From positions 1-4,408 of IMG/VR virus record IMGVR_UViG_3300006879_000538: 4,408 nucleotides of DNA; one strand, given 5' to 3'. Position 1 is the first letter of the stretch. Each line of letters starts with the position of its first letter. Under the pieces are notes generated by a model, which had not been told where the DNA came from, did no database searches, and saw only the letters and a program-made list of their open reading frames with translations. The position numbers and the translations under genes are program-made. This DNA comes from a virus (Duplodnaviria; Heunggongvirae; Uroviricota; Caudoviricetes). Below are positions 1 through 4,408 of the stretch, piece after piece.

Positions 1-1166
1 GTACAGGACGCAGATTCGTTGTATCTGATATCAATGTTTGATGACGACAAAGCCCCCGGGGATTTCCCAATCGTCAGTTCCTGAATATCGTAATAGCGTG
101 CATTCCCGCCACTCACCACGCCAAGATTCGCCGGTGAGTAAATGCGACTTAAAAGGACCGAATCACCAATCATCAGACTATTGATATAGTCGGAAATAGC
201 CTGCTGGATCTGCTGCCCTATCTGTGAGGTATAACCCGTAAAAACTTTTAATTTAATCCGGGCATAAACAGGTACATCACTGGAACGCGAGAATTTGATT
301 ACATGGGGATTGCCGTATTTATCCGGAACCGTAACGGATGTTGTACCGTGAGTGGCTGTCCCCTGGCCTTTATTCCCTCTGATAGCCTGAGCAATATCCG
401 TCACATCACCGCCATCCACAATTACAGCAACAGAGTGTGGCGGTAACCCATTACCGTCCTCCGAACCAGTATCGTTTTCATAGAGTTTGTGGCGGGTTAC
501 ACCGGTAACATTAGAAACAGCACCATCCAGTGCTTCAAATGGGGTTATTGATGGCAACGCAACACTTTGCGACTGGCGGATACGTAACTCAGCATCAGTT
601 TCTGCCGGAGAGCCAACAGTAGCCGCAGCAGGATTAGTTACCGAAACCCAGCCACGGGTTGGCGTATTAATTTCAGTGATAGTTCCAGCCAGCGCCGCCA
701 CTGCACCACTGACGGAACATGTTGCGGTCGCCATCACTGTACCATCCACGCCGACCACCACTGAAGCAGGCAAACGCCATATCACATTATTACTGTCTTT
801 CACGCTGCCATTAATGATGGTTGTTCCGGCAGTTCCTGTAAGAAGCAAATCAACCGTAGAGTTCGTCGCGCCTTTACGTGAAATACCATTTATTTTCACG
901 TTACTGGTCAGTGCAGCCCCATAGCCGGTTGCCGGTGAAAAACAGTTGTAGACAGTTATCGCCGTATTATTGGCATCATGAATCGCCAGCGCCATCAGAG
1001 CCACCATCTGGCCGTCTTTGCTGTCCGGTTCGAGGTAGGCATCACTGCCATAAATCTGCTGAAAATAGCTAATCAGGGTGCTGAGTATCGTCTGATAATC
1101 AGGCGCACTGATCCCCTCCGCGGTTACCTTTGCAGATAAACCGAGAGAATCAAGGTTCAGAGCCAT
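1..1166 (-). CDS. Baseplate J-like protein (Mu gp47 / P2 gpJ family), 3' end truncated by window edge
   Basis: ATG at 1166..1164 overlaps the stop of the upstream gene (TAATG); GGAGG lies 4-5 nt upstream. I hand-translated the frame from 1166 toward position 1 (about 388 codons, beginning MALNLDSLGLSAKVTAEGISAPDYQTILSTLISYFQQIYG) and found no stop. Family call is from position directly after V-like and GP46-like genes plus general sequence character, not from a search. Confidence 0.6.
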   Translation of the reverse strand, partial: MALNLDSLGLSAKVTAEGISAPDYQTILSTLISYFQQIYGSDAYLEPDSKDGQMVALMALAIHDANNTAITVYNCFSPATGYGAALTSNVKINGISRKGATNSTVDLLLTGTAGTTIINGSVKDSNNVIWRLPASVVVGVDGTVMATATCSVSGAVAALAGTITEINTPTRGWVSVTNPAAATVGSPAETDAELRIRQSQSVALPSITPFEALDGAVSNVTGVTRHKLYENDTGSEDGNGLPPHSVAVIVDGGDVTDIAQAIRGNKGQGTATHGTTSVTVPDKYGNPHVIKFSRSSDVPVYARIKLKVFTGYTSQIGQQIQQAISDYINSLMIGDSVLLSRIYSPANLGVVSGGNARYYDIQELTIGKSPGALSSSNIDIRYNESASC

Positions 1167-1519
1167 TACGCCTCCGATGTAACAGTCGTTATTCCATAAA
1201 GAGTGTCGATTTCAGCGGAAAACATGACACGTCGGGTCGTGGTATCCAGCGTCGTATTGAAAGAGAGGATTGATTTAACGCCCCGCGTTTCGAGGATGCG
1301 CTTACGGATCGCCAGGTTGTAGGTTTCCGGCTTCTGCTTACCGAGTACGGACTGGATCCACGGAGTCCCCTCGGTGGTGTCGAGAAACCATTGCCCATAC
1401 CACAATTCGAATCGCGTTTTTACCGCCTGCGCCACGGCCTCCGGTGAGTTAATCAGCCAGGTGTCATCACCGCTGCCAAAGGTGTAATCGCCATCGGCGT
1501 CTTCACGTCTGTATCGCAT
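1166..1519 (-). CDS. Phage GP46-family small baseplate protein (gp25/gpW-like wedge component), 117 aa
   Basis: ORF in the track (MRYRREDADGDYTFGSGDDTWLINSPEAV...). Its ATG overlaps the stop of the V-like gene (ATGA at 1517..1520) and its stop overlaps the J-like start. Size and position between V-like and J-like genes match the Mu gp45-gp46-gp47 arrangement. Confidence 0.65.
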   Translation of the reverse strand: MRYRREDADGDYTFGSGDDTWLINSPEAVAQAVKTRFELWYGQWFLDTTEGTPWIQSVLGKQKPETYNLAIRKRILETRGVKSILSFNTTLDTTTRRVMFSAEIDTLYGITTVTSEA

Positions 1520-2271
1520 CAGTTTACTCCGTCGGTATTGCTTCCACCGCGCTGAACACCACCATGAGTGTGCGTATCATCGATTGGCTTGCCGTTAGCC
1601 TTCACGCTACCCAAAAACTCAACAGCACCAGTAATTTTTGAAGCCACACCAGAAACAACAGACCCCACCATGCCCCCCATCCAGGTTAACAGGCCATGAA
1701 TGGTTACTTTCTCAGAAAAATCAGCCAGAGGGGCAACCACATCAAGGCCCCCCGGAGCAACAATTTTAATTTTCCCGGTATCAGGATTAAGCTCAAAATA
1801 GGTGCTGCCATCGTCACTACGCAACTGTGTGGCACTGGTATTAATACCGCTAATCTTCCTAGCCTGCGACTGGGGACCGACAATACAAAACGCATCCGAT
1901 AAATCATGCATTCTGTCATCAACAGGCTCCTGTATCCCGCCGTTCTGCCACCAGAAATCAATACAACGATCGGCAAAAACGACAAGACACTCATCCCCGG
2001 CTTTTACCGGAAAAGTCAACGTACAGCCTCCGCCGCGCGGAAATACCACCGGCACATCCACCAGTAGCGGGTAATTTTTGGTTACGCGGTTGCCGTCGTT
2101 GTCGGTTTCAACCGAACGAATAGCAGGCTGCACAACCGCCGTCACCGCGTCAGGATCGAATGACTGAACGATGCCAGGCAAAGCGACGCGGATCTGGTTC
2201 TTTGTGGTTTCCCGCTCGGATTTGAATGTTTCGGCAAGGTCGCCGCTGCGGGTCTGGTCAGATACTGCCAT
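1519..2271 (-). CDS. Baseplate assembly protein V-like / tail spike (Mu gp45-like), 250 aa
   Basis: ORF in the track. The segment PLLVDVPVVFPRGGGCTLTFPVKAGDECLVVFADRCIDFWWQNGG resembles the N-terminal OB-fold region of gpV-family spike proteins, and the C-terminal part is Gly-rich. GGAG lies about 7 nt upstream of the ATG at 2271. Synteny with the GP46-like and J-like genes supports the call. Confidence 0.7.
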   Translation of the reverse strand: MAVSDQTRSGDLAETFKSERETTKNQIRVALPGIVQSFDPDAVTAVVQPAIRSVETDNDGNRVTKNYPLLVDVPVVFPRGGGCTLTFPVKAGDECLVVFADRCIDFWWQNGGIQEPVDDRMHDLSDAFCIVGPQSQARKISGINTSATQLRSDDGSTYFELNPDTGKIKIVAPGGLDVVAPLADFSEKVTIHGLLTWMGGMVGSVVSGVASKITGAVEFLGSVKANGKPIDDTHTHGGVQRGGSNTDGVN

Positions 2272-2290
2272 TTGTTAGGCTCCAGAAAGC

Positions 2291-2314
2291 AAAAAACCCG
2301 CCGGATGGCGGGTT
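2291..2314 (-). terminator. Rho-independent terminator for minus-strand transcription, downstream of the HEPN gene
   Basis: Inverted repeat aacccgcc (2295-2302), loop ggat, ggcgggtt (2307-2314) on the plus strand. On the minus strand the GC-rich stem is followed directly by a T6 run (complement of a-run 2291-2296). It sits 18 nt after the HEPN stop (2332) and about 20 nt before the V-like start (2271). Confidence 0.6.
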
Positions 2315-2331
2315 CGTAAATAAACTTTTTG

Positions 2332-2712
2332 CTAGGCTACTTGGGATTTCATTTCTGCTATTTTGTCCAACATCTTGTTCACCACTGCAATAGATGAACT
2401 TGCTTCAGTTTGCAAAATAGTCTCTGTTAGATCGTAGTCCGCGCGCTTACGCTTCATTTTTTGCTGTTTGAGAACTGCCCCCAACTGGATAAGAGACATT
2501 AACTCATAAGGTTCATCCTTCCGCCTTGCATCCGAAATAAGATATTGAACAACTCCATCATGTGTTGTCGGCGGGCAACACGTCAAAAGGCCACATGTTT
2601 CATGGTAGAACGCATAGTATGCCCGTGAAATAGCACTTCTGAAACCAGACTCAATACCAGTGTCTAAACATGCACGGGATGCGTCAATGAACTCTTTTCC
2701 TTGGATACTCAT
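2332..2712 (-). CDS. HEPN-domain protein, putative RNase toxin/effector, 126 aa
   Basis: ORF in the track. Residues 29-58 (SRAYYAFYHETCGLLTCCPPTTHDGVVQYL) match the pattern I recall for classical HEPN proteins: an R-x6-H motif inside an RAYYA.FH helix followed by a conserved H.GV segment. The motif R30-H37 is encoded at 2602..2625 (RC = CGGGCATACTATGCGTTCTACCAT). Start ATG overlaps the stop of the upstream gene by 4 nt (ATGA). Confidence 0.7.
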   Translation of the reverse strand: MSIQGKEFIDASRACLDTGIESGFRSAISRAYYAFYHETCGLLTCCPPTTHDGVVQYLISDARRKDEPYELMSLIQLGAVLKQQKMKRKRADYDLTETILQTEASSSIAVVNKMLDKIAEMKSQVA

Positions 2713-3482
2713 ATCGTGAAGTGAATCTCCTGCCGATTACGCCCGCGGAACCAGGCCGTCACATTCTTTCCAGCGAAGATCTCATTCATTGCAATTTCAG
2801 TAGCAACGTCAATATCCATATCGGAAAGCATATCGGCATCCTCACATAAAACATCACAAACTATGCCAGCATCCCCATCCGGGCTTGTGACATAGTCATG
2901 AGAAATAGCTAAAACACCATAATTCTTAGCGACATTAGTAATTGTTCTGGAAAGAAGATTTATCTCATTCGTGCTTAAATCAGTCACACTTATGAATGTA
3001 TCTAATGCCCGTTTTTTTTCCATGATATCTGACTCCATGCTTTCTCGCTCGCTCTCACTTCCGATCATAGACAGAGCTTTTCGAGCAAAAAAGAGTGATA
3101 GTTCACCATCGCCGTCAGCATAGGCTGCATTCCTTGCTCGTATGCACAAAGCAAGGCTGGTAATTTCCCGAGCTAACCTCACAGCCTCTTCTCGGTACAA
3201 TTCATACTGTCCAGTATGACTGAGGTAAGAAAGATAATTTCTGGCTACTGTTTCGTCACGGTATGCAACTGCCTCCTGAAAAAAACCGACAGCTTCAACA
3301 TGTTGATGCGCAGCTCCATAAGCCAGAGCCAACACCATCAACTTAACTGGCTCATCAGGGATTTTGCCTGCTTCAGAGACAACTCGCTTTAGCGTAAAAG
3401 CATCCAGTTGCTGCCCTTCATCAATACGTGAAGTAAGCATCTCAAGCGTTTCATTCAGTTTGCTATACAGTGCAAGTGACAT
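2709..3482 (-). CDS. Hypothetical protein, 257 aa, operon partner of the HEPN gene (candidate antitoxin/sensor)
   Basis: ORF in the track. AAGGAGG lies 6 nt upstream of the ATG at 3482..3480. The N-terminal half (about residues 45-140) looks alpha-helical and possibly TPR-like (LALAYGAAHQHVEAVGFFQEAVAY...YLSYLSHTGQYELYREEAV). The C-terminal region is acidic (residues 202-229, DGDAGIVCDVLCEDADMLSDMDIDVATE). I see no Walker A motif and no clear GS...DxD nucleotidyltransferase signature. Confidence 0.65.
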   Translation of the reverse strand: MSLALYSKLNETLEMLTSRIDEGQQLDAFTLKRVVSEAGKIPDEPVKLMVLALAYGAAHQHVEAVGFFQEAVAYRDETVARNYLSYLSHTGQYELYREEAVRLAREITSLALCIRARNAAYADGDGELSLFFARKALSMIGSESERESMESDIMEKKRALDTFISVTDLSTNEINLLSRTITNVAKNYGVLAISHDYVTSPDGDAGIVCDVLCEDADMLSDMDIDVATEIAMNEIFAGKNVTAWFRGRNRQEIHFTI

Positions 3483-3533
3483 TAATCATCCTCCTTAACG
3501 GAGGAATTTATCATTGGAAGGCATCATCAACAA
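3483..3533 (-). promoter_or_regulatory. Putative sigma70-type promoter, palindromic element and SD for the two-gene operon
   Basis: Read on the minus strand: candidate -35 TTGTTG (3533..3528), 17-nt spacer, TG-extended -10 TAAATT (3510..3505), then the perfect palindrome TCCTCC-GTTAA-GGAGGA (3505..3489) whose downstream arm is the SD, then the ATG at 3482. Promoter hexamers are a modest match to consensus. Confidence 0.35.
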
Positions 3534-3680
3534 CCTGTTGTTTTATTCATTAATCCATATTCTAGACTAATGCTTTGCTCTTTTCTAAGGAGAGAAAGGA
3601 GAACTGGTTAAAATTTCTTACTCTCACCCAGCCACTTTTTTACAAGGGAAAGATTCGATGATTTTCGGCGCATCCATGAC

Positions 3681-4157
3681 TTAATAACCTTGAGATTTAG
3701 CAACGCGAATACCGGCCGCCATCCCATTGAAATCCCATGCGTTTTTATGGGCAATAGGATTACGTGTGTTGAAGGCATAGCGCTGGCCCATTTTCCATGC
3801 TGTATCGCTAACAGACTTATCTTGAGAGAGGTTTACCCACTCCTTTATGCCTTTGTAAACATAGGACTTACAATCATCCGTAGTTCCTTTCCGATTGGTG
3901 TAGGCATCCAGATCTTCGCATTCTTGAAAGGAGTTGCTGACTATATCCGCGAAATCATCAATGGTCATGGCGAATCTGCGACCATTCATAGCGAAAAAAG
4001 GAGTAGCAGAGGCGTAATGTTGCCACTGCGTAAACTTTTGCTGATCCATTAAATCAACAGCCATTTTTTCATACTTCCCAGGAGCGGATAATCCCGACAT
4101 CGGAACAAGTAAACTTATTGCAATAAAAATGGCTTTCTTATTCAATCTTATCCCCAC
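3681..4157 (-). CDS. Hypothetical secreted/periplasmic protein with N-terminal signal peptide (start codon uncertain: GTG 4157 or TTG 4145; track ATG 4226 less likely)
   Basis: The track ORF (3681..4226) contains an internal signal-peptide-like segment, LNKKAIFIAISLLVPMSGLSA-PGK, which only makes sense at an N-terminus. GTG at 4157..4155 lies 10 nt after AAGGAG (4173..4168); TTG at 4145..4143 is the alternative. The predicted mature protein has two Cys (QECEDL..., ...DDCKSY), compatible with a periplasmic disulfide. I recognise no family. Confidence 0.55.
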   Translation of the reverse strand: MGIRLNKKAIFIAISLLVPMSGLSAPGKYEKMAVDLMDQQKFTQWQHYASATPFFAMNGRRFAMTIDDFADIVSNSFQECEDLDAYTNRKGTTDDCKSYVYKGIKEWVNLSQDKSVSDTAWKMGQRYAFNTRNPIAHKNAWDFNGMAAGIRVAKSQGY

Positions 4158-4408
4158 CGATTCATTGCTCCTTGACTTTGAAGATCCGCCGCGCCACGCG
4201 CTTGGCACATCATATCCATGTACCACGCCTGGCCCCTTGTGTCACCAGTGTACATAATCCCGCGCACAATATAAACGCCATCCGTTGCGATGCTGGCAGG
4301 TTGTGCTGTGGTGCCGCTGAGCGTGATATTACCGTCCGTGTTCTGGTCGGTGATCTGACCACCAGCCATAGCGATATCGTTGTTCGACAACGCGGCGCGA
4401 TATACAGA
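4148..4408 (-). CDS. C-terminal fragment of an upstream phage tail/baseplate gene (possibly the baseplate hub, Mu gp44 / P2 gpD-like, by synteny), 5' end beyond window
   Basis: The minus-strand frame is open from the window edge (4408) to TAA at 4150..4148 (…SNNDIAMAGGQITDQNTDGNITLSGTTAQPASIATDGVYIVRGIMYTGDTRGQAWYMDMMCQARG…). The track's TTG start at 4390 is probably internal. Functional call rests only on position upstream of the V-like gene. Confidence 0.4.
   Translation of the reverse strand, partial: SVYRAALSNNDIAMAGGQITDQNTDGNITLSGTTAQPASIATDGVYIVRGIMYTGDTRGQAWYMDMMCQARGAADLQSQGAMNRWG

Follow-up and report, generated by a model that had tools for sequence, protein, structure and literature searches.

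A mobile prophage cassette pairs an AF0298-type HEPN protein with a TPR-like partner in place of a nucleotidyltransferase

HEPN modules and their partner proteins

Among prokaryotic toxin-antitoxin modules, HEPN/MNT is considered the most abundant, and HEPN toxins with non-enzymatic protein antitoxins (RnlAB, LsoAB) are established. In Class II HEPN/MNT, a PF05168-type HEPN is paired with a PF01909 MNT (Yao et al.); toxin function, activity and biological role have not been demonstrated for the Class II HEPNs (PMC7641770). We analyzed a 4,408-nt stretch of virus-derived DNA (hereafter, the window) in which a gene for a 126-aa HEPN protein overlaps the end of a gene for a 257-aa protein. The HEPN appears to be of the same subtype as in Class II HEPN/MNT, i.e., AF0298/UPF0332-like, without RX4H and with a conserved Tyr beside the motif, and the operon layout corresponds as well, the partner gene lying upstream and overlapping slightly. 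The partner, however, has a TPR-like plus alpha-beta-beta-alpha-beta architecture, with neither a conserved GSX10DXD motif nor a nucleotidyltransferase (NTase) fold. As it is not an MNT, neutralization, if any, must be non-enzymatic. The clade studied here is carried by phages, whereas the outgroup examples occur in ordinary chromosomal surroundings.

Several other HEPN systems resemble parts of this arrangement. AbiV, the Lactococcus abortive-infection HEPN of a type III toxin-antitoxin system, is ~200 aa long, has an RNA antitoxin and is triggered by the phage protein SaV, whereas in the cassette the partner is a protein, neither repeats nor an RNA element are present, and the proteins have no detectable sequence relationship to AbiV. 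An RNA antitoxin or repeat array of the AbiV or ToxIN type was ruled out, as scans with Rfam (E ≤ 1), TRF and ARAGORN returned nothing. RnlA/RnlB and LsoA/LsoB likewise combine HEPN RNase toxins with unrelated protein antitoxins, but their genes are arranged in a different order, the toxins RnlA and LsoA are large, consist of several domains and have canonical HEPN motifs, and RnlB is a small protein with no relationship to TPR proteins.

HepS (Gifsy-1) and Tha (S. aureus prophages) are prophage HEPN defences triggered by phage structural proteins (PMC13043305). In both, as we propose here, a HEPN effector is a temperate-phage accessory gene that is constitutive in lysogens; they are single-protein systems with a canonical RX4-6H, whereas the cassette has an obligatory, separate TPR-type partner and a HEPN of the AF0298 subtype. 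Anantharaman et al. 2013 described AbiU2 in an operon with a Sel1-repeat protein, and LA2681 fused to, or in an operon with, a TPR. These proposed conflict systems likewise couple a HEPN genetically to a TPR-class repeat protein, and their descriptions set them apart by their other HEPN families, a conserved Rx4-6H and the lack of any described C-terminal alpha-beta-beta-alpha-beta domain.

The validated E. coli system DS-28 of DefensePredictor (a 163-aa HEPN and a 252-aa hypothetical protein) is similar in total size but has the opposite gene order and a canonical RNSVAH motif in its HEPN; identity with it was rejected (E = 0.94 in BLASTP of the large proteins, 0.2% probability in hhalign of the HEPNs). 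A known defence system was also set aside, with no PADLOC-DB 2.0 match at E ≤ 1 for either protein. The accessions were absent from the DefensePredictor supplements, and a literature search found no description of this HEPN/TPR-partner pairing. The pairing is undescribed and represents an exchange of the partner protein in the Class II HEPN/MNT lineage. Since sensor or antitoxin partners of HEPN effectors are already well known, it does not amount to a categorically new kind of system.

Genomic setting and expression signals of the cassette

All genes in the window are on the minus strand and form the tail/baseplate module of an enterobacterial myovirus-type prophage, i.e., a baseplate-J gene that extends past the window end, a 117-aa sheath-initiator/wedge gene (1166-1519), a 250-aa gpV-type spike gene (1519-2271), the HEPN gene (2332-2712), the 257-aa gene (2709-3482) and, listed after this pair, a 181-aa ORF (3681-4226). 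The window flanks are 96.5-97% identical to the E. coli phages vB_EcoM-689R2, -611R5, -606R2 and -683R1. The cassette is missing from all four despite their near-identical flanks, and its slot in the sister phage 689R2 is occupied by an unrelated 170-aa gene. Among 5,426 complete E. coli genomes, the cassette is present in only 2, in each case in a prophage adjoining pphA/pinE. Its GC content is 41-46%, against 49-55% in the adjacent tail genes.

The gene pair was found in at least six contexts: SEN34-like myoviruses (in the baseplate slot preceding the spike gene), three lambdoid types whose terminases differ (in the gap from lysis to terminase genes), a Mu-like Aeromonas prophage (between the tape-measure and DNA-circulation genes), a second Mu-like Aeromonas prophage (between Mor and endolysin), Xenorhabdus (beside tail-fibre assembly genes) and a lambda-like siphovirus (before tail genes M/L). 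A tblastn search of 50,697 deposited phage genomes found no member of the 257-aa family, which is therefore known only from prophages and viral metagenome contigs. Given the two E. coli genomes, the different gene in the sister-phage slot and the multiple contexts, the cassette reads computationally as a mobile prophage moron, self-contained in that it comprises a predicted promoter, the large gene, the ATGA overlap, the HEPN gene and a predicted terminator.

The putative sigma-70 promoter (3505-3533, minus strand) was recognized from its sequence, which reads TTGTTG-17 nt-TGaTAAATT (3533-3505), with the -35 TTGTTG at 3533-3528 followed by the 17-nt spacer, the extended -10 TG at 3513-3512 and TAAATT at 3510-3505. 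Of 23 distinct upstream regions, 15 had the motif TTGNNN-N14-TGNTANNNT at -50 to -55 from the ATG, compared with 2 matches in 442,760 background bases, and the hexamers were kept between lineages where the spacers had diverged. Another promoter-like site (3587-3559), from a generic scan, was not significant against shuffles and was rejected in favour of this conserved extended -10 promoter. Directly after the HEPN stop there is an intrinsic terminator (2284-2315, minus strand) with a 9-bp stem containing 6 GC pairs and then a T-run. An equivalent GC hairpin and T-run ends every distinct cassette in every context, with stem sequences that differ between lineages. With its own promoter and its own terminator, the cassette is read as an autonomous unit.

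The 257-aa gene has a Shine-Dalgarno sequence, AAGGAGGA (3489-3496, minus strand), 6 nt before its ATG. The GGAGGA within it pairs with TCCTCC as the 3' arm of a perfect hairpin, TCCTCC-GTTAA-GGAGGA (3505-3489, minus strand), flagged as a stem-loop and also seen on folding. Because the 5' arm shares sequence with the -10/start region of the cassette promoter, the full hairpin, with the Shine-Dalgarno sequestered, would form only in read-through transcripts from the upstream late (tail) operon. The hairpin could thus be a way to translate the cassette in lysogens and not during late lytic transcription. Similar Shine-Dalgarno-pairing hairpins were seen in L001, L009, L022 and L023, and not in L003 or L006. 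A separate conserved stretch, 'aaaaCAaCAGG', at 3534-3545 of the window and at equivalent positions in L003, L009, L011 and L021-L024, lies directly upstream of the -35 hexamer of the cassette promoter and extends into it. It is kept in divergent baseplate-slot loci and could be a UP-like element, an operator or a recombination joint of the moron.

The genes bordering the cassette are also variable. In the 181-aa ORF (3681-4226), only the first ~50 residues are common to a conserved 111-aa gene located before the cassette in related prophages. For the other ~130 (window ~3679-4181), the Trabulsiella guamensis loci L009 and L020 gave the only matches, at 83% identity, and no family was found. 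The counterpart is 111 aa long in PK8241 and L003 and 289 aa in L004, and the gene appears to have either a hypervariable C-terminal part or a second small insert. The spike gene (1519-2271) is mosaic relative to the otherwise near-identical PK8241 prophage (L001) and IMG/VR contig L010, the regions concerned being 1525-1806 and 2076-2279. At 90-100% identity, L001 aligns to window positions 1-1524 and 1807-2075, L010 aligns to 1-2075, and both align to 2280-3678, so that the alignment breaks across the middle of the spike gene (L001) and at its 5' end. This mosaicism indicates probable recombination inside the spike gene, directly beside the cassette. The cassette-bearing lambdoid prophage L006 also encodes, upstream of its lysis genes (L006 2207-2746), a protein with a SocA/Panacea domain (PF13274). 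Panacea is a hyperpromiscuous antitoxin domain, and this prophage thus has another probable toxin-antitoxin or defence moron.

The gene pair and its two proteins

A HEPN-profile match was directly downstream of the large gene, on the same strand, in 37 of 37 loci carrying a relative of that gene. The 37 loci come from the window, a prophage of E. coli PK8241, IMG/VR contigs and assemblies; near-duplicates are common among them, and 23 distinct upstream regions are represented. The stop and start codons overlap as a 4-bp ATGA (2709-2712, minus strand, in the window) in 35 loci and by 1 bp in the other two, which indicates likely translational coupling of both genes. The large gene has a strong Shine-Dalgarno, whereas the HEPN start, inside the ATGA overlap, has only a distant AGGAG, and HEPN translation is therefore probably dependent on translation of the 257-aa partner. 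An upstream antitoxin position, a two-gene operon and translational coupling are also the layout of classical type II systems.

The association holds over considerable divergence. Distant HEPN relatives (131-132 aa, 38-47% identity) and the intermediates P0243 and P0240 all follow a 248-262-aa gene that matches the 257-aa family HMM (E = 5e-57 to 9e-77). Outgroup PF05168 HEPNs found with the same profile are instead preceded, in non-phage settings, by overlapping 106-108-aa genes, which by their size are candidate MNTs; another is preceded by an unrelated 203-aa gene. The two proteins diverge together, with identities (large protein/HEPN, in %) of 92/93, 70/82, 58/64, 47/56, 41/61 and 30/47, the large protein always being the faster. 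The pair is thus strictly linked and co-diverging, and it moves jointly between unrelated phage backbones.

The 257-aa gene is real, with a match to phrog_17809 (E = 3.6e-99) and 34 clusters of homologs of about 257 aa in Enterobacterales; the ORF, its length and the S220-D-M-D-I-D-V226 string are as the first-pass annotation gave them. A profile search of 1.8 billion representatives added ~85 full-length clusters (245-290 aa), among which there were no domain fusions. Pfam (no match at E ≤ 1), NCBIfam (only a weak PilW match, E = 0.06) and PADLOC did not recognize the protein itself. Among 73 relatives, however, 27 matched TPR_2 and 21 matched TPR_1 (best E = 5.9e-6), and the family profile aligned to many long TPR proteins in 5-16 stretches. 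The AF2 model (pLDDT 92.2, pTM 0.85) is folded throughout at high confidence, with a disordered tail limited to residues 249-257.

In the model, residues 3-137 (3072-3476, minus strand) form eight short antiparallel helices in a TPR-like solenoid of approximately four repeats, in agreement with the TPR definition (tandem helix-turn-helix units of ~34 aa in a right-handed solenoid). The earlier suggestion of a helical, possibly TPR-like N-terminal half was thereby borne out, as was that of an acidic C-terminal region (net charge -8 over residues 171-257). A long connecting helix (residues 143-167; 2982-3056, minus strand) leads to a compact alpha-beta-beta-alpha-beta domain (residues 171-248; 2739-2972, minus strand) with the elements H171-187, E191-199, E205-212, H216-232 and E241-248. 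Its best fold match was the N-domain of RimP, which binds ribosomes. Ribosome binding through this likeness was set aside because the fold is too generic, CDF-transporter C-domains scoring nearly as high. No DNA-binding family or fold (HTH, RHH or AbrB) was detected in family and fold searches, which makes the 257-aa protein unlike the classical autoregulating type II antitoxins, as does the lack of a labile toxin-binding segment in the fully folded model.

Conservation is unevenly distributed along the protein. Column entropy is lowest (2.07 bits) in the acidic amphipathic helix 216-232 (2787-2837, minus strand), followed by strand 241-248 ('TAWF', 2.34 bits) and TPR helices 3-5 (~2.5 bits). 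Helices 6-10, strand E1 and above all the long linker (3.23 bits) are the most variable parts (2.9-3.3 bits). The conserved helix has an N-cap box, D-[P/A]-[D/E], at residues 215-217 and the pattern D215 cap, D/E221, M222, N/D223, E/D225, L226, A227 and A231, and the S220-V226 motif (2805-2825) falls within it. No residue is invariant across the 73 relatives, only A64 reaching 90%, and the family has no conserved catalytic residues, which fits a binder rather than an enzyme. The motif thus seems to lie at the functional core of the family, where it contributes a conserved acidic surface. This fits the fallback offered in the first-pass annotation, and non-enzymatic neutralization through the acidic patch of helix 216-232 is plausible.

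The HEPN gene (2332-2712, minus strand) encodes a 126-aa HEPN-domain protein of AF0298 type (HEPN-T/UPF0332-like), the presumed effector. The Class I motif RX4HXY is absent; the corresponding sequence is R88-K-R-A-D92-Y93, with D replacing H. In line with the Class II description, Y93 is invariant and relatives carry PF05168, the window protein itself being below the Pfam reporting threshold. Both R88 and D92, located where helix 71-93 ends, are invariant, and H51, in the 43-70 insert between helices 21-42 and 71-93, is near-invariant and aligns to the His of PDB entries 9xbd and 2hsb. R88, D92 in place of His, H51 in the helix 2-3 insert and the invariant Y93 make up an alternative active-site set, the residue pattern described for the AF0298/AbiV type (PMC3710099), and the protein falls within the AF0298-like HEPN-T subfamily as defined there. 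AbiV has the same active-site variant and is a proven rRNA-degrading toxin (PMC13064643). By its residues, the HEPN is a probable RNase toxin; it could also be non-catalytic, given that there is no canonical Rx4-6H and that Class II HEPNs have not been shown to be toxins.

The closest solved relatives of the HEPN, 9xbd and 9xbc, differ at the Tyr aligned to Y93 (RNRSDYDL vs RNRSDFDL). Y-to-F mutants of this kind are typically made to study AMPylation, and the pair suggests unpublished work on a Class II HEPN; a literature search for the two entries found no paper. Y93 stays invariant in this clade, which has no MNT partner.

Possible roles of the pair

One explanation keeps the enzymatic chemistry of the parent lineage: the C-terminal domain would be a highly divergent MNT, fused to a TPR sensor and AMPylating the HEPN, presumably on Y93. 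Its gene is at the operon position of an MNT, the HEPN retains the invariant Y93, a residue of the adenylylation-site type in HEPN/MNT modules, and the closest relative in the PDB has entries with Y and with a Y-to-F change at the equivalent position (9xbd/9xbc). The first-pass annotation had compared S220-V226 to the SDxDhhV acidic strand of NTases and had seen no GS motif upstream. The comparison fails, as the model places the motif on helix 216-232 and not on a beta-strand, and position 223 is Asn in 49 of 73 relatives and Asp in 21. Positions 221 (D/E in 58/73) and 225 (D/E in 56/73) have i/i+4 spacing and thus make one acidic helix face, not a DxD metal site. The statement on the GS motif needs correcting, as the literal GSX10DXD occurs in 10 of the 34 close homologs and the window protein has G203-D204-x10-D215-A-D217; across the family, however, the motif is not conserved. 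The Ser of that motif is restricted to one subclade, and the literal motif was found in 1 of 73 diverse relatives. Position 203 is gapped in 22 of the 73 and Gly in 14, and positions 215-217 are D/T/N/S - P/A - D/E (Pro in 26/73), i.e., a helix N-capping box. The string spans a hairpin loop, strand E2 and a helix cap, against the strand-GS-helix-strand(DxD) order of NTases, and a loose version appears in 22% of shuffles of the acidic 257-aa sequence. For these reasons, we treat the GSX10DXD-like string as coincidental. Fold matching of the model gave no NTase fold; the protein is also longer than a minimal nucleotidyltransferase antitoxin (PF01909 fold, under 150 aa), and no residue is invariant across the family. 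A divergent MNT is hardly credible on this evidence.

With architecture, folds, the HEPN subtype and its conserved active-site set, linkage, co-divergence, autonomy and mobility established computationally, we infer RNase activity, physical binding, direction of control and biological role as follows. As a prophage moron, the cassette would be transcribed constitutively from its own promoter in the lysogen, and the HEPN RNase and its TPR-type partner would be made in coupled stoichiometry. From the operon position usually held by an MNT antitoxin, the 257-aa protein may bind the HEPN stoichiometrically, probably via the acidic helix 216-232 and strand 241-248 of its C-domain, and keep it inactive; the acidic surface may contact an arginine-rich face of the HEPN. 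The faster-evolving TPR/linker part would recognize an infection cue, e.g., a phage protein, or be degraded. Either event would release the HEPN, after which RNA would be cleaved, translation arrested and the infection aborted, and cassette expression would shield the lysogenic host. The two-gene cassette is a probable new toxin-antitoxin or anti-phage module. We give roughly even odds (about 0.5) to the reading in which the 257-aa protein regulates a HEPN RNase by non-enzymatic means, as antitoxin and/or sensor, within a toxin-antitoxin-like module for abortive infection or superinfection exclusion. Counted in favour of an antitoxin were the order and overlap of the two genes, which resemble those of MNT-HEPN operons with their upstream antitoxin. 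Against this best explanation, the PADLOC 2.0 models recognize neither protein, and the frequent location of the cassette within tail-gene clusters would also be compatible with a function in the biology of the phage itself.

Sequence does not distinguish an inhibitor from an activator, and the TPR protein might instead be an obligate positive partner (adaptor, activator or targeting subunit), the HEPN being inert alone and active or substrate-directed only in the complex; for example, the TPR domain would bind a phage protein or bring the HEPN to ribosomes. An obligate complex is equally compatible with the strict linkage and translational coupling, TPR domains are sensors in other defence proteins (PMC9122126), and HepS and Tha are activated by direct binding of phage tail proteins and not by loss of an antitoxin (PMC13043305). 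The best fold match of the C-domain, to the ribosome-binding RimP N-domain, points the same way, but the RimP-like alpha-beta-beta-alpha-beta unit is generic and metal-transporter domains match it too, and the gene order and overlap mirror antitoxin-toxin operons. We regard an activating partner, the main rival, as unlikely. A function in the phage life cycle, in which the cassette would encode a tail/baseplate assembly chaperone or an RNA-binding regulator of late transcripts and the HEPN would be catalytically inactive, has a lower probability still. Closely related phages lack the cassette or have another gene in the slot; it also occurs in the lysis-terminase and Mor-endolysin gaps, distant from tail genes; it has its own promoter and terminator, foreign GC content, and R88, D92, Y93 and H51 conserved as an active site would be; and none of the 50,697 deposited phage genomes contains it.

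Within the reading of a regulatory antitoxin or sensor, a more specific version is tentative and, in our view, somewhat doubtful. In this phage-borne Class II HEPN clade, the MNT antitoxin would have been wholly replaced by one sensor/antitoxin of TPR plus alpha-beta-beta-alpha-beta architecture; its conserved acidic helix would plug the basic RNA-binding cleft of the HEPN, its fast-evolving TPR groove would bind an incoming phage structural protein and so free the RNase, and the system would have spread as a portable moron, complete from promoter to terminator, among enterobacterial and Aeromonas prophages.

The cassette reveals a phage-borne clade of the Class II branch in which the enzymatic antitoxin has apparently been exchanged for a repeat-protein partner, carried as an autonomous unit in prophage accessory slots. 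If it is a defence or addiction module, it would be a small two-gene addition to the prophage defence repertoire that current catalogues miss, and would offer, in E. coli, a convenient case in which to test if AF0298-type HEPNs are genuine RNases. It would also indicate that HEPN toxins are able to trade an enzymatic antitoxin for a stoichiometric one. Should the replacement, the acidic plug and the TPR-mediated release all prove true, the pair would represent a new mechanistic class of HEPN toxin-antitoxin/abortive-infection system.
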